Shown here one piece after another: positions 45,335-61,717 of a DNA stretch of 64,000 bases. The translations under genes and the position numbers were made by a program. The notes below the pieces were generated by a model. It was not told where the DNA came from, ran no database searches, and saw only the letters and a list, made by a program, of their open reading frames with translations. Source of the stretch: an uncultured Rikenellaceae bacterium (GTDB lineage: Bacteria > Bacteroidota > Bacteroidia > Bacteroidales > VadinHA17); contig CAZEUL010000005.1 in assembly GCA_964514725.1 (NCBI GenBank), forward strand, positions 129,479 through 193,478. The letters are read 5' to 3'. Numbering within the stretch: position 1 is the stretch's first letter; every line of letters starts with the position of its first letter.

Positions 45335-45361
45335 AGTCAGAAACGAAATTTTTAATTGAAT

Positions 45362-46330
45362 ATGTCAGTTTTAGTTTATACAGAAAATTGGGATGGTAAA
45401 TTCAAGAAACTTTCATTTGAACTTGTCTCCTATGCAGCTAAAGTTGCAGAAATGCTTAAAACTAATGTTACATCTGTAACAATAGGGAAAGCTGATGCTG
45501 AAGAATTAAAAAAACTTTCTGAGTATGGAGCTGACAAGATACTTAATGTCACGGATTCAACCCTATTATCCCTCGATAATCAGGTCTATGCAAAGTTAAT
45601 TTCAGAAATTGCGAAAAATGAGAATTCGGAAGTTATTATATTCTCAAATAACAATAGCGGAAAAGCTATTGCGCCGCGTGTTTCAGTCAGACTCAAAGCC
45701 GGTCTTGCCTCGGGAGTAAGCAAATTGCCAATAAGCATTGATCCGTTTGTTGTATATAAAAGGGCATTCTCGGGCAATGCTTTTGCGTATATGAAAATTA
45801 ATTCGGCAATAAAGATTATTACCCTTGCCCAGAATTCCTACGAATTGATAAGGAAACCGACAGGCGCTTCCCCGGAAATAATTGTAGCAGAGATTGACCT
45901 TTCAACTATAAAGACAAAGATTTCAGAGGTCCAGAAACAAACGGGGAAAATTCTTCTGACAGATGCCGAGATAGTGGTTTCAGGAGGAAGAGGAATGAAA
46001 TCGCCGGATAACTGGGGTCCAATTGTTGAACTTGCTTCTTTGCTGGGAGGTGCCACTGCCTGCTCAAGACCTGTTTCAGATGAAGGATGGAGACCTCATG
46101 AAGAACATACCGGCCAGACCGGTAAAATAATTTCACCTAATCTTTATATTGCAGTTGGCATTTCTGGCGCAACACAGCATCTTGCCGGAATTAGTTCTTC
46201 CAAATATATTGTTGCTATTAATACTGATAAGGATGCACCTATATTTGAAGCTGCCCAATATGGTATCGTCGGCGATGCCCTGAAAGTGCTTCCAAAACTG
46301 GTTGAAGCAGTCAAAGGTATTAAGAAATGA
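45362..46330 (+). CDS. etfA: Electron transfer flavoprotein alpha subunit
   Basis: The start is ATG 45362 (MSVLVY). The C-terminal FAD-binding region is present (VVSGGRGM...PNLYIAVGISGATQHLAG). Confidence 0.9.
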   Translation: MSVLVYTENWDGKFKKLSFELVSYAAKVAEMLKTNVTSVTIGKADAEELKKLSEYGADKILNVTDSTLLSLDNQVYAKLISEIAKNENSEVIIFSNNNSGKAIAPRVSVRLKAGLASGVSKLPISIDPFVVYKRAFSGNAFAYMKINSAIKIITLAQNSYELIRKPTGASPEIIVAEIDLSTIKTKISEVQKQTGKILLTDAEIVVSGGRGMKSPDNWGPIVELASLLGGATACSRPVSDEGWRPHEEHTGQTGKIISPNLYIAVGISGATQHLAGISSSKYIVAINTDKDAPIFEAAQYGIVGDALKVLPKLVEAVKGIKK

Positions 46331-46562
46331 ATGATTAATTTCTCATTTTCCTTTCTATTGATGAGAACAAAATTCACTTATTTGATTTCAAGGGTAAAAA
46401 GTTTTAATCATGAAAAACAATCATGAAAAAAGATCTCAGTGTCCTTAATGAAAATTCTTTACAACTTTTGCGGTTAAATGATATAATTCTTTTTTTACCT
46501 CAGTTTAAGCTTTATTTAAAGATTGACTTAACTTCTACTGCAAAACAGACAATATCATACAA

Positions 46563-48665
46563 ATGATCAGACAAACAATATTTGCCATTGCCCTTTTAAT
46601 AACCCTGGGACTCTTTTTTTACACAATAAGACGTCTTATCAGGTTCTTCGGTTTTACCAGGCCTGCTTTTACTGTAAAGGATTATGGGAAACGATTTAAT
46701 ATTATGATGAAAGTGGCTTTGGGCCAGACAAAGATTTTCCGGAAACCTGTATTGGGCTTTTTTCATGCTTTGGTATTCTGGGGCTTTTGCGTAATACTTT
46801 TCGGCAGTATTGAAATGGTTATTGATGGCCTGGCAGGCACAAATCGGGCATTGAAATTTCTGGGGCCGGTTTATGATTTTTTAATGGCAACAGGTGACAT
46901 ATTCGCATTACTGGTTGCAATATCCATAATTGTTTTTCTCATCCGCCGGCTTTTTTTTCATATAAAGAGATTTGAAGGACCTGAGATGAAAAAAAAATCA
47001 CATCTCGATGCTAATGTCGCTCTTACCCTTATTCTTCTGCTGATGATCTCCCTTCTCACAATGAATACAGGGTATCTGGGCTACAACTTTTCATCAGGCG
47101 GTGAGGTTTACGGATCATTTCCTGTAAGTATTCTGCTGATGGATCTTTTTGACGGGTTTTCAAGGGAAGATTTTAGTTTAATGCACGAGATTTCATGGTG
47201 GACCCACATACTTCTCATTTTCTTTTTTGCCAACTATCTGCCTTACTCCAAGCATTTTCATGTTTTCATGTCTGTTCCTAATGTTTTTTTGTCACGGCTT
47301 GAGCCTCTGGGCAAACTTACAAATATGGACAACATAACCAGGGAAGTGAAACTGATGTTGAATCCCGATACAACTTTTTCGGCTGTATCGTCTGATTCTC
47401 CAGCAGAAAGATTTGGAATAAAGGATGCTGAAGATGCGACCTGGAAAAATTATTTTGATTCATTATCATGCACTGAGTGTGGAAGATGTACATCTGTTTG
47501 TCCGGCCAACCTTACAGGTAAAAAATTATCGCCGCGAAAAATAATGATGGACCTTCGGGCAAGAATGAAAGAAAAAGGTCCGGGAATGATAGCAAAAGGA
47601 AAGGATTTTAATGATAATCGCTCTCTTCTACGCAGCTATATTTCCGAAGAAGAATTATGGGCATGTACAACCTGCAATGCCTGCTCAAAGGAGTGTCCCA
47701 TCAACATCAACCAGCCGTCCTTAATTGTGGATATGCGGCGCTATTTGGTACTTGAGGAGGCATCTGCACCGGGAGAGCTTAAAAGCATGTTCAGCTATAT
47801 TGAAAACAACGGGGCTCCTTGGCAGTATTCTCCTGAAGACAGACTTAACTGGACCAGAGATCTTAACTTCAAAATCCCAATACTTTCTGAAATGGCCTCC
47901 AGAGGGGAAAAACCAGAATATCTATTCTGGGTAGGATGTGCCGGTGCTTATGATGACAGATATAAGAAGGTAGTCAGATCCTTTGCAAGTATTTTGAATC
48001 ATATTGGAATAAACTATGCTGTCCTGGGAAATGAGGAAACATGTACAGGAGATCCGGCAAGAAGAGCCGGAAATGAACTTCTTTACCAGATGCAGGCTTT
48101 TCAGGTAATAGATATCTTTAACAGATATGGTGTTAGAAAAATCATAACCACCTGCCCACATTGCTTTAATATTTTCAAAAATGAATACCCTGATCTTGGA
48201 GGCAATTTTGAGATTATCAATTATTTACAATTTCTCGATAATAAACATAAAGAAGGGGTATTGGATTTCTCCGTAGAAGCTTTGAAAGACGTAAAGATTA
48301 CCTATCATGATCCCTGTTATCTTGGAAGGGCAAATGACATTTATTCAGAACCCCGGACTCTTTTAAAAGCTGTTTCCGGAAAATATACAGAAATGAAAAG
48401 GCATAAAAGCTTTGCATTATGCTGCGGTGCAGGGGGATCTCAGATGTTCAAAGAAGCTGAAAAAGGAACCAGGGAGATTTTTATTGAAAGAACTGAAGAA
48501 GCCCTGGCAACAGAAGCCAAAATAATTGTAACAGCATGCCCTTTCTGTATGACAATGCTTACCGACGGACTTAAATACAAAAACAAAGAGGAAGAAATTA
48601 AAAATCTCGACATTGCCGAATTAATAGCATTATCACTTGAGAACCGGGAAAAAACAATCTCATAA
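46563..48665 (+). CDS. Membrane-anchored (Fe-S)-binding oxidoreductase with two CCG domains (HdrD/DsrK/GlpC-like; EtfD-like)
   Basis: The N-terminus has ~6 TM helices. There are two ferredoxin-type clusters (CTECGRCTSVCP, CTTCNACSKECP) and CCG-type cysteine motifs (CPHCFN, CCGAGG, ACPFC). Confidence 0.75.
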   Translation: MIRQTIFAIALLITLGLFFYTIRRLIRFFGFTRPAFTVKDYGKRFNIMMKVALGQTKIFRKPVLGFFHALVFWGFCVILFGSIEMVIDGLAGTNRALKFLGPVYDFLMATGDIFALLVAISIIVFLIRRLFFHIKRFEGPEMKKKSHLDANVALTLILLLMISLLTMNTGYLGYNFSSGGEVYGSFPVSILLMDLFDGFSREDFSLMHEISWWTHILLIFFFANYLPYSKHFHVFMSVPNVFLSRLEPLGKLTNMDNITREVKLMLNPDTTFSAVSSDSPAERFGIKDAEDATWKNYFDSLSCTECGRCTSVCPANLTGKKLSPRKIMMDLRARMKEKGPGMIAKGKDFNDNRSLLRSYISEEELWACTTCNACSKECPININQPSLIVDMRRYLVLEEASAPGELKSMFSYIENNGAPWQYSPEDRLNWTRDLNFKIPILSEMASRGEKPEYLFWVGCAGAYDDRYKKVVRSFASILNHIGINYAVLGNEETCTGDPARRAGNELLYQMQAFQVIDIFNRYGVRKIITTCPHCFNIFKNEYPDLGGNFEIINYLQFLDNKHKEGVLDFSVEALKDVKITYHDPCYLGRANDIYSEPRTLLKAVSGKYTEMKRHKSFALCCGAGGSQMFKEAEKGTREIFIERTEEALATEAKIIVTACPFCMTMLTDGLKYKNKEEEIKNLDIAELIALSLENREKTIS

Positions 48666-48675
48666 AAAATTAACT

Positions 48676-50454
48676 ATGGAAATCAGAAAAATTTTGAAAA
48701 GCGGAGAATTTCTTATAAGGGAAGTTGACTGCAAAGATGTATTCATACCGGAAGAATTCAGCGAAGAACAAAATATGATTGCCCAGACATGTAAGGATTT
48801 TCTTGAATCAGAGGTATATCCGAATTTGCAGGCAGTTGAAAAAGGCGACAGGGCCCTTATGAAGAGCATGTTAAAAAAATCGGGTGAACTTGGGCTCATG
48901 GGTATTTCAATTCCGGAAGAGTACGGTGGATTTGGACAGTCATTTGTCACCCAGATGCTTGTCGCCGAGACCACAGGAGCCGGATATTCATTCTCCGTCG
49001 CATATATGGCCCATTGCGGGATCGGAACACTTCCTATCATGTATTACGGGAACGAGGATCAACGACAAAGATATGTTACAAAACTTGCAACAGGCGAACT
49101 TCTGGGAGCTTATTGTCTTACCGAACCCGGCGCAGGAAGCGATGCTAATTCCGGAAAAACCTCTGCTAAACTCTCTTTAGATGGAAAATACTATATAATC
49201 AATGGCCAGAAAATGTGGATAACCAATGCCGGATTTGCTGATACCCTTGTCGTCTTTGCAAAAATTGATAATGACCGGGTATTGAGCGCTTTTATCGTTG
49301 AAACAGGCTATCCTGGAGTTGTAATTGGTCCTGATGAACATAAAATGGGAATAAAAGGATCATCAACTGCCCAGATTTATTTTAACGATGTAAAGGTACC
49401 TGTAGAAAACCTGCTGGGTAAAAGAGGCGAAGGATTCAGAATTGCACTCAGCATCCTTCATATGGGACGACTTAAACTTGGGGCCAATGTACTGGGTGCA
49501 GCAAAAAAAGCAATTACTGATTCAGTTAAATACGCGAACGAAAGAAAACAGTTTGGAGTCTTAATTTCAACATTCGGAGCAATAAAATATAAACTTGCAC
49601 AACAGGTCATAAGGCTTTTTGCATCAGAGTCGGCAGTATACAGAGTAAGTAAGGATATTGATGATCTTATGGACAGACTCAAATCTGAATGCGGTGATAA
49701 AGGCAGAGCAACTATAGAAGCCATAAGCCATTATGCCGTCGAAGCTGCGCTTTTGAAAGTTATTGGCTCGGAAATGCTCGATTATGTCGCGGATGAGGCC
49801 GTTCAGATCCATGGCGGAATGGGATATTCTTCTGAAATGGATGTGGAAAGAGGTTATCGTGATTCACGTATCAACAGAATTTTTGAAGGTACAAACGAAA
49901 TAAACCGGCTTCTGGTCTCAGATACTGTAATGAAAAGAGCAATGAAAGGTGACTTTGACCTTTTCGGTGAAGCTGAGAAACTTTTCGGAATCCTTGACAA
50001 TATTGAAGATGCCGGAAATAAAAATGAGAGTTATTTCCAGGAAAAATACAGATATATTAAAAACTTCAAGAAAATCATTCTGCTCTGTATGCATGCAGCG
50101 GTTAAACAATTCGATAAGAATCTGGTCAATGAACAGGAGGTCATGAATAATATTGCTGAAATGATTATGGAAACCTATCTGTCAGAATCACTTGCATTAC
50201 GAATTGAAAAGATTGAAATGATTAAAGGTTTTGTAACTGAATACAGAGATATACTTGACGTTAACATATATGACACTTCTGAAATAATCAGAAAATCAGC
50301 CCTCGATGCTGTTTATTCCACAGACTTTGAAAATAATACCGAAAAAATGGTAAGAGCAATTGAAATGCTTTCAAAAATCCGAGGAGTTAATGTTAAAAAT
50401 GCCAGAAGACGTATTGCTGATAAACTTATTGCAGATAACCATTATAAATTCTGA
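48676..50454 (+). CDS. Acyl-CoA dehydrogenase, long (VLCAD/ACAD9-like) form with an extra C-terminal domain
   Basis: The likely start is ATG 48676 (MEIRKIL). Motifs GAYCLTEPGAGSDA and YRDSRINRIFEGTNEINR are present, followed by ~180 extra C-terminal residues. Confidence 0.85.
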   Translation: MEIRKILKSGEFLIREVDCKDVFIPEEFSEEQNMIAQTCKDFLESEVYPNLQAVEKGDRALMKSMLKKSGELGLMGISIPEEYGGFGQSFVTQMLVAETTGAGYSFSVAYMAHCGIGTLPIMYYGNEDQRQRYVTKLATGELLGAYCLTEPGAGSDANSGKTSAKLSLDGKYYIINGQKMWITNAGFADTLVVFAKIDNDRVLSAFIVETGYPGVVIGPDEHKMGIKGSSTAQIYFNDVKVPVENLLGKRGEGFRIALSILHMGRLKLGANVLGAAKKAITDSVKYANERKQFGVLISTFGAIKYKLAQQVIRLFASESAVYRVSKDIDDLMDRLKSECGDKGRATIEAISHYAVEAALLKVIGSEMLDYVADEAVQIHGGMGYSSEMDVERGYRDSRINRIFEGTNEINRLLVSDTVMKRAMKGDFDLFGEAEKLFGILDNIEDAGNKNESYFQEKYRYIKNFKKIILLCMHAAVKQFDKNLVNEQEVMNNIAEMIMETYLSESLALRIEKIEMIKGFVTEYRDILDVNIYDTSEIIRKSALDAVYSTDFENNTEKMVRAIEMLSKIRGVNVKNARRRIADKLIADNHYKF

Positions 50455-50587
50455 TATGTCATGCTGAGTTCTAATCTTCAGATCCTGATTTGATTCCAGC
50501 CTTTTCTGATAATGACTTGCAGCTTTCGATCTGCATGAAATAAAAAATTCAGATGCTGACTAATATTGACAAATATTATCCAAATAA

Positions 50588-50601
50588 ATGATATATGTCA
50601 A
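50588..50601. promoter_or_regulatory. Crp/Fnr-type box (imperfect) upstream of the cytochrome operon
   Basis: ATGATATATGTCAA matches TTGAT-N4-ATCAA at 8 of 10 specified positions and lies 109 nt upstream of ATG 50710. It is embedded in a ~51-nt module paralogous to 57452-57502. Confidence 0.5.
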
Positions 50602-50677
50602 TTTATTTTGTGATAAAGAACATCTAAGAATCTTTAAAATTGCATACAGCAGTCTTAAGATACTATTTTTTCTCAGA

Positions 50678-50685
50678 TATCTTTG
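50678..50685 (+). promoter_or_regulatory. Candidate -7 promoter element (TAnnTTTG) for the cytochrome operon
   Basis: TATCTTTG is an exact consensus match and lies 25 nt upstream of ATG 50710. Confidence 0.35.
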
Positions 50686-50709
50686 TGAAAAACTTAACAA
50701 CAGACGGAA

Positions 50710-51087
50710 ATGAAAATAATAGCTAACAAATCACACCTTTTCTTGGTGACAATGATTATGCTGTTTGCTGCATTAGTGTTAGGATCATGCGAGAAATATA
50801 CTTATCAGGTGGAAGTTGTTGATCCCGGAGTCCCTGTCCTTTTTCAGACTCAGATTCAACCTATTTTTAATAATAACTGTATTGCATGTCATAAAGGTAC
50901 AAGAAATCCTGATTTAAGAGATGGGAATTCATATACCTCACTTACTACCGGCGGCTATGTAAATCTTCCGGCAGAATCAAGCAAACTTTACAGGCAGGTT
51001 ATTTCAGCCAGCCATGCCCCGTTTACACTTGATTCGGAGAAGCAGTTGATCCTAATGTGGATAAGTCAGGGGGCCAAGAATAATTAA
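50710..51087 (+). CDS. Monohaem c-type cytochrome lipoprotein (PSCyt1-like haem domain)
   Basis: It has a lipobox (LVLGSC) and a single CXXCH in the context IQPIFNNNCIACHKG. Confidence 0.65.
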   Translation: MKIIANKSHLFLVTMIMLFAALVLGSCEKYTYQVEVVDPGVPVLFQTQIQPIFNNNCIACHKGTRNPDLRDGNSYTSLTTGGYVNLPAESSKLYRQVISASHAPFTLDSEKQLILMWISQGAKNN

Positions 51088-51118
51088 GTGATTTTGTAAC
51101 CTAATAAACCAGAATAAA

Positions 51119-51982
51119 ATGAAAAAAACTTTGTTGTTTTTGTTTATATCCGCCCTAATGGTTTCATTGACAGCCCAGGAAGGGGATCAAACCAAAGAAA
51201 AATCTAAACCGGTCAGATTCACCTTTGGAACAGGGATACTTATTGATAATCAGACTGTAGAAACAACCTTCAAGGGAAGCCTTGAATTACAGATCCATCA
51301 CCGGTTCAGTCTCATTGAAAACTATCATAATCTATTTGGAATCTATGGAGCCGCAAATACACGACTTGGTTTGAATTATGGTGTAACTGACAGACTTATG
51401 ATAGGCGTCGGAACCACTAAGGATTATAAACTCCAGGATATCCAGTGGAAGTATCAGATACTGAGGCAGACAGAGGATAACAGCATTCCTTTATCACTTT
51501 CATATTATGGGAATTTCGTTATTGATCTCAGGAAAAAGGAAGCATTCGGACCGGTAGACAGATACAGAGATATTCACAGATTATCTTATTTTACCCAGCT
51601 TATTGCTGCCAGGAAATTCAATGATATCTTATCACTCCAGCTGGCACCGTCAGTTATTTATTTTAATGCTGTGCCGCAATATACAAATGACTCAAAATAT
51701 AAGAACCTTAATTTCGGCCTGTCTGCAGGTGCCAGGGCAAATGTTTCCGGGTCACACTCAATTATATTGGAATATGATCAACTGCTTACCAAACAGGACC
51801 TTGAAGAACAGCCAAAGCCAAACCTGTCCGTCGGATGGGAATTGGGAACCGCTACTCATACCTTCCAGCTGTTTGTTGCAAACTATTCCCAGGTTATTTA
51901 TCAGCGCAACCTGGTATTTAATACAAACGATTTCACGAATGGTGATTATCTGATTGGCTTTAACATAACAGTCAGGTTCTAA
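51119..51982 (+). CDS. Outer-membrane beta-barrel protein (DUF5777-like)
   Basis: It has a signal peptide (MVSLTAQ) and amphipathic beta-strand patterning throughout. The C-terminus ends in an aromatic residue (NITVRF), as in OM barrels. The early HHRF motif is as I recall for DUF5777. Confidence 0.6.
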   Translation: MKKTLLFLFISALMVSLTAQEGDQTKEKSKPVRFTFGTGILIDNQTVETTFKGSLELQIHHRFSLIENYHNLFGIYGAANTRLGLNYGVTDRLMIGVGTTKDYKLQDIQWKYQILRQTEDNSIPLSLSYYGNFVIDLRKKEAFGPVDRYRDIHRLSYFTQLIAARKFNDILSLQLAPSVIYFNAVPQYTNDSKYKNLNFGLSAGARANVSGSHSIILEYDQLLTKQDLEEQPKPNLSVGWELGTATHTFQLFVANYSQVIYQRNLVFNTNDFTNGDYLIGFNITVRF

Positions 51983-51989
51983 GTTCAAT

Positions 51990-53000
51990 ATGCAAAAAGT
52001 AATTAAACCTGGTGCAGTCTGGGCATTTATTCTGATTCTAATTTCACAATCGGTAAATGGAGTATTACAGAAAGATCCAAAACAAAATGGATCGCAGCCT
52101 GAAGTAACTGATACTCTCAAATACATTTCACCATTCTTTGAAGATAATGAGCGCTGTTTGAAGTGCCATGGGCAGAGGAGATACGAATACACCAATGAGG
52201 TCCTTGGGCGTCAGGTAAAATCTTTGATGTTTTCTGAAAGGATTATCGACAGGAACAAATTTTACCAGTCGAACCACAAAAGTTTCAGTTGTACAGATTG
52301 TCATTCTAAGGGCTATCTTACCTTCCCACATCCTGGTGAATTAAGGATGGAGCAAAAATTCAATTGTATGGATTGTCATGGCGGCGATGAAAACTTTGCT
52401 CAGTACCATTTTGAAGAAATTGAATCCGAATACCAGAAAAGTGTCCATTACAAGCTTGAGGAAGAAGGTTTTACATGCTGGAAATGTCACGGCCCGCATG
52501 ACTACAGAATAAGTATCCGAAATACTTCAAATCTTAAGGAAACCATACTTTATGATAATAATATCTGTCTGAACTGTCATTCAAACTACAATCACTTTAT
52601 GCTTCTGACAGAAAGAGAAGAGATGAATATTCTGAAGAAGCACGAATGGCTGCCTAACCAGGATGCACATTTTAAAAGCGTCAGGTGTATTGAATGCCAT
52701 GCCCAAACTAACGATACATTGCTTGTAGCACATTATATTAAACCAAAATCAGAAGCTGTAAAGAAATGCAATGAATGCCACTCCCGGAATTCAATTCTGA
52801 TGTCATCCTTGTATAAATTTCAATCTAAAGAACAAAGAAAAGATGGCTTCCTTAACGGGATTATCCTTAATGAGTCTTATGTTATAGGTGCAAACAGAAA
52901 TGAATATCTTAATCTGTTAAGCATTCTAATTTTCATATTTACTTTGGTTATTATCGGAGTTCATGTTTTTTTCAGAATTATTAAAGCAAAAAAGAACTGA
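51990..53000 (+). CDS. Heptahaem c-type cytochrome with a C-terminal membrane anchor
   Basis: It has a signal peptide and seven CXXCH motifs (CLKCH, CTDCH, CMDCH, CWKCH, CLNCH, CIECH, CNECH). A C-terminal TM helix (LLSILIFIFTLVIIGVHVFF) is present. Confidence 0.8.
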   Translation: MQKVIKPGAVWAFILILISQSVNGVLQKDPKQNGSQPEVTDTLKYISPFFEDNERCLKCHGQRRYEYTNEVLGRQVKSLMFSERIIDRNKFYQSNHKSFSCTDCHSKGYLTFPHPGELRMEQKFNCMDCHGGDENFAQYHFEEIESEYQKSVHYKLEEEGFTCWKCHGPHDYRISIRNTSNLKETILYDNNICLNCHSNYNHFMLLTEREEMNILKKHEWLPNQDAHFKSVRCIECHAQTNDTLLVAHYIKPKSEAVKKCNECHSRNSILMSSLYKFQSKEQRKDGFLNGIILNESYVIGANRNEYLNLLSILIFIFTLVIIGVHVFFRIIKAKKN

Positions 53001-53632
53001 TGGTTCATAAATTATACCTGTATCCAAAATGGGTTAGATTATGGCATATTGTTAATGCCATTCTTTTCATTATACTTATTGTTACCGGCCTGAGCATGCA
53101 ATACACCGACATTCAGAATGAAAATTTTTTCGTGGTCGGATTTGCCAGAGCTGTCAAGTGGCATAATTTTGCAGCAATATTATTGACATTCAATTATGTA
53201 TTTTTTGTTACCGGAAACATTATTACTAAAAACGGCAGGCATTACAGGATCTCTAAACAAAACTTCTGGACAGACCTTTGGTTACAGCTTAAATACTATT
53301 CCAAAGGTATGTTTAAAGGAGAAAAACACCCATTTCCGGTAACCGAGATGCGAAAATTCAATCCACTCCAGAAATTTACATATATTCTGGCAATGTATCT
53401 GGCAATGCCTTTATTAATAATTTCAGGTTTGGGTTTACTGTTTCCCGAAATTACCATTAAAAGATTTTTGGGGATGAGCGGCCTGATCCTGACCGATGTG
53501 CTTCATATTACAATGGGATTTTTATTATCAATATTCATGGTGATTCATATATATACGTGTACCCTTGGATCAAAACCCTCTTCTCTGTTTAAAGGAATTT
53601 TGACCGGTTATCATGAATCAGAAGAACATTAA
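53000..53632 (+). CDS. Membrane b-type cytochrome (PhsC/FdnI/HydC-like, cytochrome b561 family)
   Basis: The start overlaps the upstream stop as TGATG. The N-terminal WVRLWHIVNAILF signature is present, with four TM helices carrying His residues (WH, KWHN, VLHIT, MVIHIY). Confidence 0.7.
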   Translation: MVHKLYLYPKWVRLWHIVNAILFIILIVTGLSMQYTDIQNENFFVVGFARAVKWHNFAAILLTFNYVFFVTGNIITKNGRHYRISKQNFWTDLWLQLKYYSKGMFKGEKHPFPVTEMRKFNPLQKFTYILAMYLAMPLLIISGLGLLFPEITIKRFLGMSGLILTDVLHITMGFLLSIFMVIHIYTCTLGSKPSSLFKGILTGYHESEEH

Positions 53633-53697
53633 TCTTTTGACATCTCATAAAATTGCACGATTATTGTATCAAATAACCAAAACTTAAAAACATAATC

Positions 53698-54111
53698 ATG
53701 AAAACTATTAAGAAAACTTTGATTTATTCAGTAATGTTAATTGCCGTCATTTCATTTTTTTGTTTTACCGTAACTGCTCAACAACCCAAACCCTGGGATG
53801 TTCCTGCTGAATATAAAGACATGAAAAATCCTGTTGCAAAGGGCGATGAAAGTAACAAAGCAGGTTTGGCCCTCTATACTAAATATTGTGCATCATGCCA
53901 TGGCAAGACCGGTTTGGGTGATGGGGTAAAAGCAAGGATGCTTAAAGATTTCCCCGGGGATTTTTCAAAGGATTATTACCAAAACCAGACTGACGGAGAA
54001 CATTTTTATAAAACCAAATTTGGCAGGAATGATATGCCAAAATATGAAGGTAAGTTGAGTGACGAAAATATATGGAATATTGTAAACTATATGAGGACAT
54101 TTAAAAAATAG
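53698..54111 (+). CDS. Class I monohaem c-type cytochrome, periplasmic
   Basis: It has a signal peptide, CASCHG, and a distal Met candidate in GRNDMPKY. Confidence 0.75.
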   Translation: MKTIKKTLIYSVMLIAVISFFCFTVTAQQPKPWDVPAEYKDMKNPVAKGDESNKAGLALYTKYCASCHGKTGLGDGVKARMLKDFPGDFSKDYYQNQTDGEHFYKTKFGRNDMPKYEGKLSDENIWNIVNYMRTFKK

Positions 54112-54184
54112 ATATCCGTTTTAATAACTGGCTTTGGATTTCTTAAAGCCTGAACAGGATTTTTTAGGATCTTAAATCATTTGT

Positions 54185-54223
54185 GGGAATGAATGCCATT
54201 GGATTCATTCCCGTTTTTGTTTT
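54185..54223 (+). terminator. Rho-independent terminator ending the 50710-54111 operon
   Basis: A perfect 10-bp stem GGGAATGAAT / ATTCATTCCC with an 8-nt loop is followed by GTTTTTGTTTT. Confidence 0.8.
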
Positions 54224-54384
54224 AATGACATATTAATCATAAATGGAATTACAAATAAATATTATTCTTTAACTTTTAAAAATAATGTTAGTCTGTAACT
54301 ATTTTTTTGTAAGCAAGAATATCCAGAACTGACATAAAAATGCTTTTATTTTATCTGATAATAAACCTTAAATAACCGTTTACC

Positions 54385-55884
54385 ATGGAATTTAGATCTT
54401 TGGGAAGGAACTGGATAACCATTATTGGTACGTTGATCGCAGCAGTTAATCTGGTACTGATAATAGCTTTGTTCATTATATCAACACTGTTTGATAAAAG
54501 TTCCACCTACCTTGGTTTATTCATTTATATAATCCTTCCCGGTTTCATGCTGCTTGGATTAATAATGATTCCTGTAGGAATATTGATCTCCAGAAAAAAG
54601 GTAATATTATCTTCTCCTGAAGGTAAGAAGAGACTTCCTAATATTGATCTGAATAATCCTGCCCATAAAAAAGCTTTCATTGTTTTTTCAGTGGCAACAG
54701 TTATTATTCTTTTTCTTTCAACCTATGGAAGTTTTGAAGCTTATCATCTGACGGAATCGGTTGAATTCTGCGGAACTCTTTGCCACAAGGTTATGGAACC
54801 TGAATATACTGCGTATCAAAATTCTCCTCATGCCAATGTAGCGTGTGTTGACTGCCATGTTGGTTCCGGGGCCTCGTGGTATGTCAAATCCAAATTGTCA
54901 GGTTTGTACCAGGTGTACGCCACCATTACCAAAACCTATAAGGCACCTATTGAAACACCACTGCATGACCTGCGTCCCGCCAGGGAAACCTGCGAACGAT
55001 GCCACTGGCCTCAGAAATTTTACTCAAGAAAGATCTATACCGGCAAATACTTCCTGGCCGATTCGCTGAATTCTGAATGGGATATTATACTCCAGATGAA
55101 AACGGGTCCTGAATATGAAAATCTGGGTTTTACAGAAGGGATACACTGGCATATTAATCCTGATGTTAAAATTGAATATAAATCAGAAAATGACAAAAGG
55201 GAGATAATAAATTATGTAAAATACACTGATAAAGGAACTGGTGAGGAAATAGTTTACAAAAATTCTAATCTTGAAATATCTGACAGTGCTCTGGCAGCTG
55301 CTTCTGCCAGAACAATGGATTGCATAGATTGCCATAACAGGCCATCTCATAATTATAGTTCACCTCCGGTATATTTCGACCGGATTATGCTGACAGGTGG
55401 TGTATCTAAGGAGATCCCGTTCATTAAAAAAACATCTATGGGAATTCTGGCTGACACTTTCACTGATAAGGACACAGCAATGATGCAGATAAGAGATGGA
55501 ATCCTTAATTTCTATAAGTCAGATTTTGCAAACTTCTATTCATATAATAATGATAAAATTGAAAAATCAATTATTGCCGTTCAAAAAGCATTTTCGCAGA
55601 ATACTTTTCCTGCAATGGGGGTTAATTATAGCGTTTATCCGGATCATATAGGGCATCTCGAATCTGAGGGTTGTTTCAGGTGCCATAATGATACCTTTGT
55701 ATCTGAAACAGGGCGGAAAATCACTCGTGACTGCAACATCTGTCATACAATTGTGGGACAAGGCAGGCCGGGTTCAATGCAATTTTCCAATATCAGGGAA
55801 TCACTTGAATTTATGCACCCTGTTGATATAGGAACAGCCTGGAAAGAAGCCAACTGTTCCGATTGCCACAAGTTTCTTTACTAA
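54385..55884 (+). CDS. Inner-membrane NapC/NirT-family multihaem cytochrome (3 TM helices, 7 haem motifs; ImcH-like architecture)
   Basis: It has three N-terminal TM helices. The NapC/NirT signature is FCGTLCHKVMEPEYTAYQNSPHANVACVDCH. There are six CXXCH motifs (CVDCH, CERCH, CIDCH, CFRCH, CNICH, CSDCH) plus one CX3CH (CGTLCH, nt 54769-54786). Confidence 0.75.
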   Translation: MEFRSLGRNWITIIGTLIAAVNLVLIIALFIISTLFDKSSTYLGLFIYIILPGFMLLGLIMIPVGILISRKKVILSSPEGKKRLPNIDLNNPAHKKAFIVFSVATVIILFLSTYGSFEAYHLTESVEFCGTLCHKVMEPEYTAYQNSPHANVACVDCHVGSGASWYVKSKLSGLYQVYATITKTYKAPIETPLHDLRPARETCERCHWPQKFYSRKIYTGKYFLADSLNSEWDIILQMKTGPEYENLGFTEGIHWHINPDVKIEYKSENDKREIINYVKYTDKGTGEEIVYKNSNLEISDSALAAASARTMDCIDCHNRPSHNYSSPPVYFDRIMLTGGVSKEIPFIKKTSMGILADTFTDKDTAMMQIRDGILNFYKSDFANFYSYNNDKIEKSIIAVQKAFSQNTFPAMGVNYSVYPDHIGHLESEGCFRCHNDTFVSETGRKITRDCNICHTIVGQGRPGSMQFSNIRESLEFMHPVDIGTAWKEANCSDCHKFLY

Positions 55885-56112
55885 AGCAAAGACTTATAAG
55901 TTTAAAGGATCTTATTCCACTATCAAATATCCATAATTGAAAGAGACTGTGTTAAAAACCTTTAAATTGAGTTCATCATCCTTAATATCCTTCGCTCCAT
56001 CCTTTGTAATACGCTGCGGATCATTTATTTATTTCATGCCATAAAGAAATGTCAAGGTTTTCTCAAAGACAAAGGACTTTTAATTCAGCCTCTTTCTAAC
56101 AGGATTTAATAG

Positions 56113-57339
56113 CTATATGGCAGCTAAGGTGTTTTCCAGTAGTTTTTTGGCATACTTGTAGTTATGCACGCCCTTACTCTTATCTCTCAATATAAGCTGG
56201 AAATTAATCATTGCTCCAAATTGTGCATTTGTAAGTTGGGGCATTGCAGGTAAGGTATTGTTATAAGTTTTCTGATCATTTGTCCATCCTGTAGTCGATG
56301 GTGATTTATATTTACCACCGGGGTTTGATCCCGGATCATAAATATCAAAATATCCGGTATAACCACCTGTTTCAGCATCCTTGTTCATAATGCTTGGTGT
56401 TGCAATTAAATCAAGCTTGGCTCCCAATTCGTTGAGCTTTTCTGTTATATCGTTAGCAACTCCTGTAAAAGTAGGATTTGTTTCACTCATCGATGAATGA
56501 CATCCCGTCATATTACAACCATTAAAATTACCCGCAGAAATAAATGAATGTCCTCCCGTAAATCCTGAAGGAGTTGCCATATGGCAATCCACACAGGAAG
56601 CTCCTGCCGTGTGCGGTGAATTTGAATAACCAGTTCCGAATTCAATGCCTCCGATTCCAGCAAGCATTGCACCATGCGACCCATAATGGACGCCGGTCCT
56701 GTATGAGATCGAAGATAATGTATAAGTTGCAGTAGGTTCGGATACGAGTTTTGAGTAGTCAATCAGATTTCCTGATGCTGCAGTAATCGGCCGAGGTTGA
56801 TGACATTTTGCACATAAATTTCCTGTATTCTTGGCAAGATTAATGGTCTTGGATCCTCCCCACATAGTCATCGGAACAGCCGCAGTCGTTGTAAGTGGAA
56901 GAAACTCCGTTCCTGCATAATTTGTATGCAGTGAACTATGGCATGTAAAACAGCTGATTTCTCCGGGGAATGCCAGAACTGAAGCACTTGCCACATAATT
57001 GTTAATATACTTTGTAGGATCTGATGGATTAACCACAAAGGTTGCAGGGGTACTCTTCTTTACAACATCCAGGAAACCCTGGTGTGAATGACAGGGAGCA
57101 CAGTTATTCCTTGTTCCTTCCTCAAAAGCCTCACCAAGATAATGTAAGGAATGCTTATATTCATTTGCTTTGGCATCTACCGTTGAACTGTTATGGCATA
57201 GTTTGCAAGTCTCATTGGCATCTTTACCGTCCTTGCCATCGTTCCCATCAGCTCCGGCCGGCCCCATAGGACCTTCGCAGGCTGAAAAAAGGATTGAAGC
57301 GGCAAATAAAATACTGAATGATTTCAGAAGGTTTTTCAT
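56113..57339 (-). CDS. Multihaem c-type cytochrome lipoprotein with an N-terminal collagen-like tether
   Basis: The likely start is ATG 57339 (MKNLLKSF), and the lipobox is LFSAC. Six consecutive G-X-Y triplets (GPMGPAGADGNDGKDGKD, nt 57221-57274) follow the lipid-anchor Cys. There are five CXXCH motifs (CKLCH, CAPCH, CFTCH, CAKCH, CVDCH) plus CX4CH (CNMTGCH, nt 56497-56517). Confidence 0.75.
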   Translation of the reverse strand: MKNLLKSFSILFAASILFSACEGPMGPAGADGNDGKDGKDANETCKLCHNSSTVDAKANEYKHSLHYLGEAFEEGTRNNCAPCHSHQGFLDVVKKSTPATFVVNPSDPTKYINNYVASASVLAFPGEISCFTCHSSLHTNYAGTEFLPLTTTAAVPMTMWGGSKTINLAKNTGNLCAKCHQPRPITAASGNLIDYSKLVSEPTATYTLSSISYRTGVHYGSHGAMLAGIGGIEFGTGYSNSPHTAGASCVDCHMATPSGFTGGHSFISAGNFNGCNMTGCHSSMSETNPTFTGVANDITEKLNELGAKLDLIATPSIMNKDAETGGYTGYFDIYDPGSNPGGKYKSPSTTGWTNDQKTYNNTLPAMPQLTNAQFGAMINFQLILRDKSKGVHNYKYAKKLLENTLAAI

Positions 57340-57474
57340 AAAATGGATATTAGGTTTTTTCTTTACGCAATGTAACAATAACAAAATTTTAATTTATCAA
57401 CCGAAGCGGTGTTATTTGCAATATTTTTAATTGATAAATATTTATGTTATAATTGACAAATATTAATAAAATAG

Positions 57475-57488
57475 TTGATATATATCAA
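57475..57488. promoter_or_regulatory. Perfect Crp/Fnr-type palindrome TTGATATATATCAA in a divergent promoter
   Basis: It is an exact TTGAT-N4-ATCAA. It lies 78 nt upstream of the Crp/Fnr gene ATG (57566) and 136 nt upstream of the divergent cytochrome ATG (57339). Confidence 0.65.
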
Positions 57489-57565
57489 TTATTTATATGA
57501 TATTTGTTAATTCTTGTATTTATGATTAAACGAAAATTTAAATTAGAGACCTAAATATATAAAAG

Positions 57566-58261
57566 ATGTCAGAAAAGGAATCTTTAGAGACTGGTAAAAC
57601 AAATATTCCAAAGTGGAAAAACTTTCAGCACCTGTCAAAAACTGAAATGCAGCTGGTAAAAGATAATATTTTCGAAGCCTGGTTCAAAGCAGGGGAGATC
57701 ATTTTGAAGCAAGGATCACCTTCATCAAGTGTTCTGTTTCTTAATTCCGGAATTGCCAAAAGTTTTATTGAAGGGGAAAGAGGTAAAAACTTCATAATGG
57801 AGATTATTCAGCCTGGGACTCTCATGATGGGACCGGGTGCTTATGTAAACTCAAGGAATACGATCTCTGTAGCGGCAATAACTCCTGTTCATGCATCCTT
57901 CCTGGATTTTGGTATCTTCAGGCAGTTGGTTAAAACCAATAGTGCCTTTGCTGAAAGCCTTTTAGTTGATCTTTGTTCAAAATCACTTCAGTCTCATTTA
58001 AAAATAGTTAACCTTGCTCAGAAGAAAATGCCTGGACGTATTGCTGAAGCGCTTCTATATTTTGCAGATGAAGTTTATAATTCAGACGAATTTGAACTGT
58101 ATCTTACAAGGCTGGAACTGGGTGAAATGACAAATATGGCCAAAGAAAGTGTGGTAAGAATTCTTAAGGAAATGGATGAAGCCGGAGTTATAAGCGTGAA
58201 ATCTTCATTTATCAAAATTATTGATAAGGATAAATTACGTATCATATCCGAAAAAGGCTGA
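57566..58261 (+). CDS. Crp/Fnr family transcriptional regulator
   Basis: It has a cNMP-binding-like N-terminal domain and a C-terminal HTH whose recognition helix KESVVRILKEM is close to CRP RETVGRILKML. It has only one Cys, so it lacks an FNR-type Fe-S cluster. Confidence 0.85.
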   Translation: MSEKESLETGKTNIPKWKNFQHLSKTEMQLVKDNIFEAWFKAGEIILKQGSPSSSVLFLNSGIAKSFIEGERGKNFIMEIIQPGTLMMGPGAYVNSRNTISVAAITPVHASFLDFGIFRQLVKTNSAFAESLLVDLCSKSLQSHLKIVNLAQKKMPGRIAEALLYFADEVYNSDEFELYLTRLELGEMTNMAKESVVRILKEMDEAGVISVKSSFIKIIDKDKLRIISEKG

Positions 58262-58295
58262 AAAAACTGAAGCTGTTTATTCCCAAGTAAAATTG

Positions 58296-61200
58296 ATGAT
58301 GAAAATATTTAAATTCTTATTCTCTCCCGTTTTGATGGGAGTTCTTTTAATAATTTTTGCAGTTTCAATGGCTGCAGCAACTTTCATTGAAAACGATTTC
58401 GGTTCCCCCGCTGCATACAAATCAGTATATGATACAAGATGGTTTGAGTTGATATTGTTGCTGCTTGCTGTTAATCTTATCGGTCAGATGATTACCTTCA
58501 AACTGTTCAGAAGCTCAAAACTTACAGTGTCACTTTTTCATCTGTCATTCGTGGTGATGATTATCGGAGCAGCCATTACAAGGTATTTCGGATGGGAGGG
58601 TTCAATCCATATAAGAGAAGGTGAGGAAAAGGATATCTGTTATTCATCTGACAGGTATCTGGCATTCTCACTTAAAGATGAAGCAGGTAATATAATAAGC
58701 CAGAATCAGGAAAAATTTATCGTGGGGGCCGGACATTACAGGGAAAAAATGGTGATAAATGGTAAATGGCATGAACTCATACTTTCAAAAATAATTACAA
58801 ACGCTGTAGAGGTTGTGAACGATTCACGTAACGGAGAGGCTATAGTTTCTATGATTGCAGGTTATAATGAAACTAAGGAATCCATACATCTTAAAAAGGG
58901 GGATACAACCATTATGGATGGTATTTCAATTGGTTTTTACCCTGAAACAGAAACCGACCTTAAGATAACCTCCGACTCCGTTGCATTTTATATTCAGGGA
59001 AAGATTCCTTTCACCCTTATGAATATGATGACGCAGGAAAAAACTGCGGTTGATAACGGAAAGGTGGCCGAACTGAAAGAGATGCAGATAATAACGGCAG
59101 GAAATATAAGGCTTGTCACTCAGAAGCTTACAAGGAGCGGCACCCTGAATCCGGTTTCGGCTGACAAACAGATTCAGGCGACCGGGAAAAATGTTCTGGT
59201 TTTTGATTTGTTATCGGAAGGGAAGAGTGTGGCAACAGTTAATCTCTGGGATACCGGTAAGGAAATCAGATCTTCAGGAACAGCTGAAATAGCAGGTAAG
59301 TCTCTGGAGATTACTTATGGTCCGCTTGAGAAGAAACTTAATTTTTCACTTCGGCTTAACGATTTTATCCTTGAAAGGTATCCCGGTTCCAATAGTCCGT
59401 CAGGATATAAAAGTGATGTTGTTCTTTATGACAGGACGGCAGGAGTGGAAAAACCTTTTATCATCTTTATGAACAACATCTTAAAATACAAAGGATTCAG
59501 ATTTTATCAGTCATCTTATGATCCTGATGAAAAAGGTACCGTTTTATCAGTAAATCATGATCCGGTGGGTATGAATGTAACTTATACCGGCTATTCTTTA
59601 TTATTTATTTTTATAATTCTTTCACTATTAAACAATAAATCCGTTTTTAAAAGTATAAATGCTGGTTACTGGAGTTCTTCTTTAAGAAAAAAAGTACCTT
59701 TCATACTGTTTTTTATTGTCTTTAACGGAGTTGTAAATTTAAATGCCCAAAAGCTTATACCCGATAAAAGATCAGCAGAAGAATTTGGTCAAATACTTGT
59801 TCAGGATCAAAAAGGAAGGACAAAACCTTTGTTTACACTAAGTAACGATATCCTCCGAAAGGTGGCAAGGGAAAATTCATTGGACGGACTGACTCCCATG
59901 CAGGTTTACCTGGGCGTTTACCTCGATTTTGAAAAGTGGAAAGATGTACCTCTGATAAAAATTTCCAACAGAGAGCTGCAGAGAAGGATTGGGATAAGTG
60001 GTAATATGGCAGCATTTTCAGATATAGTTGATATCAGCAGAGGAGGAATCTATAAACTTTCAGATGATGTCAACAGAGTGTATTCATTACCTCCGGGTGA
60101 ACGTAATAAGTATGACAAGGAAATAATTAAGGCTGACGAACGGATTAACATTGTTTACATGATTTATACCGGTAGGTTCCTTAAGATTTTTCCGAGGAAA
60201 GACGGGCAGCACGACTGGGAATTTCCTGAAAATGCCCTTAAAACTGCTGTTAACAAAGAGGATTCTCTATACCTTGAGAACGTCATCCCGATGTTTGCAG
60301 ATGCAATCAGGTCAAAAAACCGGTCGGTGGCGAGTACGATCTCACAATCCATTATTGATTACCAGAAGAAATTTGCACGTTACGATCTTCCTCCTGAATC
60401 AAAATCGAGGGCTGAAATAATTTATTACAAACTAATGATCTTTGAAAGGCTTTTCCCTTTTTATGCGGGAATTGGATTAGTGATGCTTATCGGACTTTTG
60501 GTTATGGTTATAAGGGGAATTAAAACCAAATCCTTTTTTGTTAAAGTTTTGGGATGGCTCCTGTTTGCCGGATTTTTACTTCATACACTTGGCCTGGGAT
60601 TACGATGGTATATATCGGGTCATTCTCCCATGAGTAATGGCTATGAATCAATGATCTTTATTTCATGGGTCACGCTTCTTGCAGGATTTATCTTTAGCAG
60701 GAAATCGGCATTTGCACTTTCAGCTACAGCTGTGCTTGCTTCAATGACACTTATGGTAGCCCATCTGAGCTTTATGGATCCTGAAATAACCAACCTTGTT
60801 CCGGTGCTGAAATCATACTGGCTTACTCTTCATGTTTCAGTGATTACCGGCAGCTATGGATTTCTTGGCCTGGGTGCGATCCTCGGCTTAATTTCAATGA
60901 TACTTATTTCCCTCTCCAGTATTAAAAACAGGGAAAGAATTTCTGTTACAATCGACGAGCTGGTTGTTATTAATTACAGAACACTAACTCTCGGGTTGTA
61001 TTTACTAACAATAGGGACCTTCCTTGGAGCTGTTTGGGCTAATGAATCGTGGGGAAGATATTGGGGCTGGGATCCTAAGGAGACTTGGTCGCTGATTACA
61101 ATTATCGTCTATACTTTTATAACGCATTCAAAGAATATCCCGGGTCTCAAAGATATCTTTTCGTTCAACCTGTTTTCTCTCTTTGGCTTCTCTTCAGTCC

Positions 61201-61364
61201 TGATGACTTATTTTGGTGTAAACTATTATTTATCGGGCTTGCATTCATACGCGGGGGGAGATTCTGTTCCGATACCCGGATTTGTTTATTTTACTGTTTT
61301 GATTCTTGTGTCTTTGTCGTTTTTAGCTTATTCCAGATACAGGAAATGGGAAAAACAGACATAG
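58296..61364 (+). CDS. ccsBA: Fused system II cytochrome c biogenesis protein CcsBA (ResB-like + CcsA haem lyase)
   Basis: The likely start is ATG 58296 (MMKIFKF), whereas the track ORF starts earlier and overlaps the regulator gene. The N-terminal part is ResB-like with a large periplasmic domain. The C-terminal part is polytopic and carries the CcsA tryptophan-rich WWD motif (WGRYWGWDPKETWS). Confidence 0.85.
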   Translation: MMKIFKFLFSPVLMGVLLIIFAVSMAAATFIENDFGSPAAYKSVYDTRWFELILLLLAVNLIGQMITFKLFRSSKLTVSLFHLSFVVMIIGAAITRYFGWEGSIHIREGEEKDICYSSDRYLAFSLKDEAGNIISQNQEKFIVGAGHYREKMVINGKWHELILSKIITNAVEVVNDSRNGEAIVSMIAGYNETKESIHLKKGDTTIMDGISIGFYPETETDLKITSDSVAFYIQGKIPFTLMNMMTQEKTAVDNGKVAELKEMQIITAGNIRLVTQKLTRSGTLNPVSADKQIQATGKNVLVFDLLSEGKSVATVNLWDTGKEIRSSGTAEIAGKSLEITYGPLEKKLNFSLRLNDFILERYPGSNSPSGYKSDVVLYDRTAGVEKPFIIFMNNILKYKGFRFYQSSYDPDEKGTVLSVNHDPVGMNVTYTGYSLLFIFIILSLLNNKSVFKSINAGYWSSSLRKKVPFILFFIVFNGVVNLNAQKLIPDKRSAEEFGQILVQDQKGRTKPLFTLSNDILRKVARENSLDGLTPMQVYLGVYLDFEKWKDVPLIKISNRELQRRIGISGNMAAFSDIVDISRGGIYKLSDDVNRVYSLPPGERNKYDKEIIKADERINIVYMIYTGRFLKIFPRKDGQHDWEFPENALKTAVNKEDSLYLENVIPMFADAIRSKNRSVASTISQSIIDYQKKFARYDLPPESKSRAEIIYYKLMIFERLFPFYAGIGLVMLIGLLVMVIRGIKTKSFFVKVLGWLLFAGFLLHTLGLGLRWYISGHSPMSNGYESMIFISWVTLLAGFIFSRKSAFALSATAVLASMTLMVAHLSFMDPEITNLVPVLKSYWLTLHVSVITGSYGFLGLGAILGLISMILISLSSIKNRERISVTIDELVVINYRTLTLGLYLLTIGTFLGAVWANESWGRYWGWDPKETWSLITIIVYTFITHSKNIPGLKDIFSFNLFSLFGFSSVLMTYFGVNYYLSGLHSYAGGDSVPIPGFVYFTVLILVSLSFLAYSRYRKWEKQT

Positions 61365-61639: not shown

Positions 61640-61717
<78 letters not shown>

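Follow-up and report, generated by a model that had tools for sequence, protein, structure and literature searches.

In Geobacter, extracellular electron transfer (EET) depends on inner-membrane quinol oxidases, two of which resemble proteins described here. CbcBA is required for extracellular respiration near the thermodynamic limit and combines CbcA, a cytochrome c that binds seven haems in its periplasmic domain and has its only transmembrane (TM) helix at the C terminus, with CbcB, a four-TM dihaem cytochrome b that is encoded together with CbcA and is usually annotated as 'thiosulfate reductase'-like. ImcH, a quinol oxidase required for EET, has a length of 495-519 residues, three TM helices, a CX3CH motif adjoining the membrane domain and six CX2CH motifs. 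OcwA, a member of the NrfA/HAO/MccA family by structure, is a cell-surface terminal reductase of Thermincola. Bacteroidota live in large numbers in peat, sediments, digesters and guts, and their respiration of insoluble or extracellular acceptors is poorly understood. Here we describe a locus of nine genes, A to I, at 50565-61364 of a 64-kb stretch of DNA (the window, analysed at its full length) from an uncultured Rikenellaceae bacterium, and we suggest with moderate confidence that it encodes a menaquinol-fed, Crp/Fnr-controlled chain of c-type cytochromes that leads from the inner membrane to outer-membrane-associated haem proteins. The genes and signals of the locus are the following.

50566-50601, unstranded: TTGACAAATATTAT and ATGATATATGTCAA, two boxes of the Fnr/Crp type that together make an inverted repeat, some 122 nt ahead of the start of A
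50678-50685, + strand: TATCTTTG, candidate Bacteroidota -7 element of the A-E operon (TAnnTTTG, the Bacteroides -7 promoter consensus)
50710-51087, + strand: A, monohaem lipoprotein of 125 residues with lipobox LGSC and one CIACH motif
51119-51982, + strand: B, DUF5777 beta-barrel of 287 residues, predicted to lie in the outer membrane (PF19089, 238.2 bits)
51990-53000, + strand: C, CbcA-like heptahaem cytochrome c with signal peptide, seven CXXCH motifs and C-terminal TM anchor
53000-53632, + strand: D, CbcB-like four-TM dihaem cytochrome b (PF01292, 87 bits), coupled to C
53698-54111, + strand: E, class I monohaem cytochrome c with N-terminal signal sequence (PF13442, PF00034)
54183-54214, + strand: intrinsic terminator at the end of the A-E operon, 12-bp stem and T-run
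54385-55884, + strand: F, ImcH-like inner-membrane quinol oxidase with three TM helices and CX3CH followed by six CXXCH
56113-57339, - strand: G, hexahaem lipoprotein, putative member of the NrfA/OcwA multihaem family and candidate terminal reductase, with lipobox and six haem motifs
57431-57488, unstranded: Fnr/Crp-type boxes clustered in the promoter region between the divergent genes G and H
57566-58261, + strand: H, Crp/Fnr-family regulator (PF00027, PF13545) with no N-terminal Cys cluster
58296-61364, + strand: I, fused CcsBA (ResB plus CcsA) system II cytochrome c synthase (PF05140, PF01578)

In the model that we favor, menaquinol would be oxidised by a CbcBA-like complex of the dihaem cytochrome b D and the anchored heptahaem cytochrome c C and, in this genome, also by the ImcH-like F; the electrons would then pass to the class I cytochrome E and from there both to the hexahaem lipoprotein G and to a unit formed by A and B. 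The final reduction of an acceptor would take place at or beyond the outer membrane, with Fe(III), Mn(IV), humic quinones or an oxidant that crosses the membrane poorly as candidates for that acceptor. H would switch on both transcription units through a common Fnr-type box and I would attach the haems. What the analysis shows are the types of the proteins, their topologies and their haem counts; the order of the carriers past the inner membrane, the outward direction of flow, any passage through B and the identity of the acceptor are inferred.

A preliminary description of this DNA, made by eye, had listed the nine open reading frames, 22 c-haem motifs in five proteins and a set of topologies. 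All nine frames are present where it had placed them, and a motif recount gave the same 22 motifs, distributed as one in A, seven in C, one in E, seven in F (CX3CH as the first and then six CXXCH) and six in G (five CXXCH and a CX4CH as the last). Because the remaining open reading frames of at least 100 residues in the 64-kb window hold one CXXCH altogether, so that 22 of 23 motifs fall inside the cluster, the clustering is far beyond chance. (The sole other CXXCH is in a 493-residue PD40-repeat lipoprotein at 16074-17555 and is probably there by chance.) Hydropathy and the N-terminal sequences agree with the described topologies: A and G have lipoboxes, C is anchored by a TM helix at its C terminus, and D and F have four and three TM helices, respectively. 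They also point to signal peptides in B, C and E. The TGATG in which the stop codon of C overlaps the start codon of D and the strong terminator after E were likewise found as described. No molybdopterin, Fe-S, copper or sirohaem protein is encoded within 50565-61364, and no model of a nitrite, sulfite, tetrathionate or thiosulfate reductase reached its threshold in the searches with hidden Markov models; no such catalytic subunit had been seen by eye either. Of the three outcomes that would have told against the earlier idea, namely placement in a known reductase system, genes not conserved together and a barrel lacking outer-membrane features, none came up.

C and D fit the published description of CbcA and CbcB point for point, the likeness being one of described features and not of alignment. 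As in CbcBA (GSU0593/GSU0594), one operon encodes first a heptahaem cytochrome c and next to it a dihaem cytochrome b with four TM helices. The TM helix of C is at residues 309-327 by hydropathy; among the 107 members of the C family, 93 have seven CXXCH and 94 a C-terminal TM helix, and seven more His residues beyond the haem motifs are invariant. In D, His16, His55, His169 and His183 are invariant, and the TGATG overlap predicts that D is translationally coupled to C. The two loci differ in that the operon described here opens with a monohaem lipoprotein and a DUF5777 barrel and the Geobacter operon with GSU0597, GSU3489 and GSU0596. D scores 172 bits against the model of PhsC, under the cutoff of 204; with no Mo or Fe-S gene in the island, a thiosulfate reductase PhsABC was rejected. 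In a separate comparison, C gave a weak colinear match (E 3.6e-5) to the 278-residue 'Cytochrome c' chain 28pb_A of the PDB, which spans five haem motifs and a common W-L-P-x-x-D-x-H segment; 28pb_A may be a solved relative of CbcA-type cytochromes.

F, with 499 residues, fits every published sequence feature of ImcH that can be checked; here, too, the likeness is one of features and not of alignment. Hydropathy peaks at residues 13-31, 49-67 and 97-115 give three N-terminal TM helices, and the CX3CH motif, CGTLCH at 129-134, stands next to the third of these, as in ImcH (GSU3259), and is followed by six CXXCH. This set of motifs is present in 16 of the 18 family members, F counted. A biochemical study of Geobacter ImcH lists E127, H137, K173, Q179 and Y188 as conserved residues of haem 1 and the quinol site; their counterparts in F are E124, H134, K170, Q176 and Y185, which have the identical spacing at a constant offset of -3 and are conserved in 17-18 of these 18 proteins. 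Family models detect a NapC/NirT/NrfH-type region in F, paralleled by the NrfH-like region of ImcH; the topology, the motifs and this region bear out the preliminary description of F as a three-TM NapC/NirT-type protein with seven haem motifs. NrfH itself was rejected as an identity for F, which scores 65.6 bits against TIGR03153 (cutoff 134.2) and has seven haems and three TM helices instead of four haems and one TM helix. Unlike ImcH, F forms a separate transcription unit after the terminator, and no Fnr-type box was detected upstream of it; its periplasmic partners would be monohaem class I cytochromes, whereas those of the Geobacter protein are trihaem cytochromes of the PpcA type.

The family of G is annotated only as hypothetical. 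The best match of G in the PDB is OcwA of Thermincola potens (6i5b), at E 1.6e-4 with the single sequence and 4.5e-6 with a profile; identity is 19-20%, and the two proteins have in common a C-terminal CVDCHM...CxxCH pair and a helix motif GVHNY. An alignment-based AlphaFold2 model of G has a mean predicted local distance difference test score (pLDDT) of 68 with a confident C-terminal helical bundle, and a Foldseek search with this model again returned OcwA at the top (probability 1.0, E 3.4e-4, TM-score only 0.36), NrfA entries being far behind. Since OcwA ranks best both by sequence profile and by fold, we regard G as a probable remote member of the NrfA/OcwA family, to which, like the NrfA/ONR proteins, it would be tied by its C-terminal haem pair and the helical bundle with GVHNY. 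It differs from OcwA in having six haems instead of nine and in being a lipoprotein of a Gram-negative bacterium with a collagen-like linker and an invariant CX4CH. When 51 family members are aligned, six haem motifs, the CX4CH included, prove invariant, and so do six further His residues, which could suffice for bis-His ligation of all six haems. G has no CXXCK, and it matches neither PF02335 nor the NCBIfam models of NrfA nor a curated model of Otr or MccA; some of its relatives do reach the Pfam model of NrfA, as at locus L063 with 25.4 bits against a cutoff of 24.1. Residues 23-40 of G (57220-57273, - strand) form six collagen-like Gly-X-Y triplets, GPM GPA GAD GND GKD GKD, which begin one residue past the lipidated Cys, and the family consensus there is C-E-G-P-M-G-P-x-G-x-x-G; this stretch may act as an extended spacer.

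The outer-membrane side of the model centers on A and B. For A, all matches to family models are below threshold (Cytochrome_CBB3 at E 0.0028; an LIC11213 lipoprotein model at 29 bits, cutoff 100). In 144 A-like sequences, A of the window included, the lipidated Cys, an E-K-Y-x-Y directly after it, the CxxCH and a C-terminal W-I-x-x-G-A are conserved, and no conserved distal Met or His was found, suggesting that the haem of A may be unusually ligated. B covers positions 3-247 of the 247 of PF19089, far above the cutoff of 23.1 bits, and the signal peptide, the terminal Phe and an amphipathic beta periodicity agree with its earlier assignment as an outer-membrane barrel ending in Phe. Judged by this periodicity and by a poor model (single-sequence AlphaFold, pLDDT 33) that has seven strands in its last 105 residues, the barrel may have roughly 12-16 strands. 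DUF5777 comprises 1274 clusters at 50% identity, nearly all of them standalone proteins of about 290 residues. A profile of 63 DUF5777 sequences matched no PDB sequence even at E 10; a literature search on DUF5777/PF19089 found no paper, and one on EET clusters of Bacteroidales or Bacteroidota found nothing specific.

How E relates to the barrel is suggested by P0258, a natural fusion of 407 residues in which an N-terminal cytochrome c domain precedes a DUF5777 barrel. This domain is E-like, with 34% identity to E over 124 residues (E 3.5e-27), and not A-like. The fusion points to a physical association of E with the DUF5777 barrel; P0258 is the one fused protein among 150 listed representatives of DUF5777 clusters, and no relatives of it were found in a scan of JGI metagenomes.

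A metagenome scan anchored on DUF5777 proteins at middle distance gave 80 diverse loci in which the barrel, a close relative of B in some and a distant one in others, is 34-83% identical to B. An A-like monohaem lipoprotein is encoded immediately upstream of the barrel in 59 of the 67 loci with upstream DNA. Among the 23 distant loci with at least 4.5 kb of downstream DNA, 19 have a quinone-interacting module beside A-B (DsrOP-like in 13, CbcBA-like in two, both in four) and 17 an E-like cytochrome. Because the pairing, a quinol module and E are all kept in distant loci, we regard A-B as a deeply conserved unit. A relative of G was not detected at many A-B loci, and many distant loci encode, upstream of A, a lipoprotein of about 400 residues that combines an EB_dh haem domain (PF09459) with one CXXCH (for example L167:5203-6414, with similar genes in L112, L119, L131, L136, L137 and L157). 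Thus, as read from gene content, A-B is constant and can be combined with one or another inner-membrane quinol module and large haem lipoprotein. The undescribed element of the locus is this pair of a monohaem lipoprotein and a DUF5777 barrel with its phylum-wide coupling to quinol modules. Some of the distant A-B loci presumably come from soil, to go by their sample labels.

The preliminary description had called the whole module uncharacterised. For A and B this holds; the inner-membrane modules are of known kinds, and the cbcBA paper already noted homologous clusters in Bacteroidetes; Prolixibacter and Labilibaculum are among the genera reported to have cbcBA. By their features, C and D and F are probable new members of the known families CbcBA and ImcH, I is a new member of CcsBA, and G would be a new branch of the NrfA/OcwA family.

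The presence of the locus in close relatives was followed in a genome scan anchored on D, in which 321 or more species-level genomes had a relative of D. The counts refer to the best 80 of these genomes, searched by tBLASTn with the island proteins, with the loci that have enough DNA as denominators. These relatives are metagenome-assembled genomes of Bacteroidales that stem from fens, peat, lake sediment, aquifers and digesters, and carriers of the locus include the 4.99-Mb chromosome OY970276.1. The genes A, B and C precede D in 70 of 72 loci, and E (50/56), G (53/56), H (53/56) and I (50/56) are nearly as constant, whereas F, in a further difference from ImcH, is optional in this lineage (9/56). 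Half of the loci (28/56) have an Fe-S and NrfD pair between D and G, made up of a four-cluster Fe-S protein with a Tat signal and an NrfD-family membrane protein, DsrO/DsrP-like by NCBIfam, and after this pair comes an uncharacterised secreted protein, about 300 residues long and with weak Ig-like matches (e.g. L063:10639-13841, L007:12563-15756). About half of the relatives have this trio between D and E, and it is also found beside A-B in distant loci; some loci have a second module of a multihaem protein, Fe-S protein and NrfD protein, or extra copies of E or G. The inserted pair is reminiscent of the NrfCD, DsrOP and QrcCD modules, with the differences that it is absent from the window and that, where present, it has no Mo or haem catalytic partner.

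Conserved Fnr-type boxes accompany both the A operon and the G/H promoters. The sole perfect TTGAT-N4-ATCAA of the window is at 57475-57488 in the G/H spacer, with near-perfect copies beside it. In the relatives, searched for nTGAT-N4-ATCAA with at most one mismatch (background 0.13 per kb), 55 of 72 have a box in the 260 nt that precede A, and most of those read are about 120-125 nt from its start; 42 of 59 have one in the G/H spacer, where most of those read are about 112-117 nt in. The same type of box before the A operon and in the G/H spacer supports one regulon, and A-E and G/H presumably form this regulon under the control of H. A sigma-70 promoter scan was uninformative (50 sites, 41 expected). 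This common operator and the co-conservation of the genes are, like the protein types, directly observed, and the co-occurrence in a fixed order that the preliminary description had suggested checking across Bacteroidota genomes is borne out in the Bacteroidales relatives, where A-E, G, H and I are near-constant and the box is conserved. Family models also confirm H as a Crp/Fnr regulator and I as a fused CcsBA lyase, which passes the CcsB equivalog TIGR03144 with 190.1 bits (cutoff 187.6). Only the start of I was revised: since the relatives have 1013-1032 residues and the TTG at 58221 overlaps H, the ATG at 58296 (1022 residues) is the more likely start. In two distant loci, Crp/Fnr proteins encoded next to A-B (L114:4541-5236, L146:453-1166) have Cys-rich starts, e.g. 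MVENCNAPCCVNCES, like O2-sensing Fnr.

Several observations weigh against the proposed chain to the outer membrane. The signal that exports lipoproteins to the surface of Bacteroidota is C-X-K-(D/E)2 directly after the lipidated Cys; it is present in 0 of 131 lipoproteins of the A family and 0 of 66 of the G family, A reading C-E-K-Y-T-Y and G C-E-G-P-M-G-P, and it was found in 6 of 20 EB_dh lipoproteins of the distant loci (C-T-K-D-D). Because the signal is missing from both families, A and G may both face the periplasm, which weakens the picture of surface cytochromes. B, with about 265 mature residues, is too small to sheathe a multihaem protein in the manner of MtrB, and the earlier caveat that a barrel of 287 residues is far smaller than MtrB/PioB-type porins stands. 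Class I cytochromes c are often high-potential, and E could feed other periplasmic enzymes. C, D and F are tied to their Geobacter counterparts by published features, not by direct alignment, and the CbcBA genes of Geobacter are under sigma-54/BccR control, whereas a Crp/Fnr protein and an Fnr-type box are found here. The family in which G is placed includes enzymes for soluble substrates, and OcwA itself reduces nitrite and hydroxylamine. Finally, as the close relatives belong to one lineage in which synteny extends to the housekeeping flanks (genes for the electron transfer flavoprotein (ETF), the Fe-S oxidoreductase, FadE and a Wzx-like protein), gene order is partly inherited, and its conservation alone is weak evidence for a functional unit. 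Of the trans-envelope transfer proposed in the preliminary description, the envelope-wide distribution of the components is retained; the small size of B and the missing export signal in both lipoprotein cytochromes weaken the case for electron passage across the outer membrane.

We tentatively consider a more specific and rather doubtful proposal, namely that A and B docked by E are an unrecognised minimal outer-membrane electron gate of Bacteroidota that is widespread in the phylum. Such a gate, in which electrons would pass through B, would be served by interchangeable quinol modules (CbcBA-, ImcH- or DsrOP-like) and by terminal haem lipoproteins that are either OcwA-like, as G, or of the EB_dh type, and it would constitute a third architecture for the crossing of the outer membrane by electrons beside MtrAB-type conduits and Cyc2. 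The locus resembles MtrCAB, PioAB and the Pcc and Ext conduits of Geobacter in that it combines genes for a barrel of the outer membrane, for c-type cytochromes that are periplasmic or lipid-anchored, and for quinol oxidases of the inner membrane. It differs from these porin-cytochrome conduits in three respects: (i) the barrel has 287 residues and MtrB/PioB-type porins have about 650-700, (ii) there is no MtrA-like decahaem protein, C scoring 39.8 bits against TIGR03508 (cutoff 192), and (iii) no lipoprotein of the locus has a recognised surface-export signal. With too small a barrel and no MtrA, an Mtr-type conduit was rejected. What recalls Cyc2 is the pairing of one c-type haem with a small barrel of the outer membrane, the nearby class I cytochrome c and the existence of a fused cytochrome-DUF5777 protein. 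Here the differences are that A is a separate lipoprotein, the genes for A and B being 31 nt apart, that the fused example P0258 is E-like instead of A-like, and that the direction of flow is probably opposite.

The strongest alternative, possible although in our view unlikely, is that G is the catalytic subunit of a periplasmic reductase for a soluble substrate such as nitrite, hydroxylamine, NO, sulfite or similar, to which menaquinol would deliver electrons by the CbcBA-, ImcH- or DsrOP-like modules and E, with B as a channel or anchor and A as an accessory carrier. The only detectable relatives of G are of the NrfA/OcwA/ONR family, some proteins of its own family reach the Pfam model of NrfA, and the reduction of nitrite and hydroxylamine by OcwA and the lack of a surface-export signal in A and G are as this alternative would have them. 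The same is true of the NrfH-like region of F and of the NrfCD/DsrOP-type modules inserted in relatives, modules that classically feed periplasmic multihaem reductases. The position of the CcsBA lyase beside G is, by analogy, that of the dedicated lyase NrfI, which adjoins nrfA in Wolinella. What speaks against a soluble-substrate reductase is that G has neither CXXCK nor a match to the curated models of NrfA, Otr or MccA, that its six extra invariant His residues could leave no open catalytic haem, and that G, undetected at many A-B loci, is not a constant element; moreover, such a role would leave the tight coupling of barrel and lipoprotein cytochrome and the E-barrel fusion unexplained. 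Among specific enzymes, NrfHA nitrite reductase was rejected because of the missing CXXCK and NrfA model match of G and the score of F below the NrfH cutoff, and a classical Nrf, Phs, Ttr, Otr or Mcc operon because the models of these enzymes all stay below threshold and a catalytic partner is missing. The preliminary view of the locus as a conduit and not a classical reductase is strengthened by the match of C and D and of F to CbcBA and ImcH, with a periplasmic reductase role of G as a live rival.

Alternatively, electrons may flow inward, with A and B as a split Cyc2 that oxidises extracellular Fe(II) or reduced humics and with E passing the electrons to an oxidase or reductase encoded elsewhere, or uphill to quinone by the b/c or NrfD modules. 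We consider this quite improbable. The combination of a monohaem cytochrome with a small barrel would be analogous to Cyc2, as E of class I type would be to carriers of the Cyc1 type; a fused cytochrome-DUF5777 protein exists, and CbcL-type b/c modules have been published for both iron reducers and iron oxidisers. On the other hand, ImcH homologues have so far been reported only from Fe(III) reducers, the Fnr-type box fits the induction of an acceptor pathway, the habitats of the lineage are fens, peat, sediments and digesters, the locus has no gene for an oxidase, and A and B are separate proteins in the window.

The idea that there is no single system but a lineage-specific hotspot of unrelated respiratory modules with a general cytochrome c synthase, to which the synteny of the entire neighbourhood in close relatives (ETF, FadE and the Wzx-like gene included), the variability of the D-G stretch, where F, DsrOP-like modules and extra copies of E and G come and go, and the possibility that I could be the only CcsBA of the organism lend themselves, is in our opinion highly improbable given that the Fnr-type box before A is found again between G and H, that A-B stands beside a quinol module and E in distant loci without flanking synteny, that C and D are translationally coupled and that 22 of the 23 haem motifs of the window are in one block. 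A recently acquired genomic island was rejected, as the locus has the same chromosomal position in close relatives; its GC content of 0.36-0.38 is only slightly under the window average.

By the features of C and D and of F, two of the three quinol oxidases on which EET depends in Geobacter have counterparts in a large uncultured lineage of Bacteroidales, where they would be wired to a different and undescribed outer-membrane unit. If A and B move electrons across the outer membrane, DUF5777 would become a phylum-wide genomic marker and a small tractable study system; if G is instead a reductase of soluble substrates, it would stand for a new NrfA-family branch that is marked by a CX4CH haem.

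Directly upstream of the locus (44585-50454) are genes for EtfB, EtfA, a 700-residue membrane-bound Fe-S/CCG oxidoreductase, which is HdrD/GlpC-like with a hydrophobic start, and an acyl-CoA dehydrogenase of the FadE type. ETF alpha, the Fe-S oxidoreductase and FadE are syntenic with the island in 49 of 58 related genomes. These proteins may feed electrons from acyl-CoA into the quinone pool that the island would drain, and their adjacency suggests a link of fatty-acid oxidation to this electron outlet; equally, the arrangement may reflect lineage synteny only. Just beyond I there is a tRNA gene (61643-61716, - strand), and in the relative GCA_040772125.1 (L004:18903-20165) the place after I, which the Wzx-like gene takes in other relatives, is occupied by genes for a phage-type integrase and for type II/IIS restriction-modification. 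The first part of the window (1-44000) is of the saccharolytic Bacteroidales type and encodes several GH123, GH31, GH106, BNR/sortilin-like, DUF5107-TPR and DUF6057 proteins.

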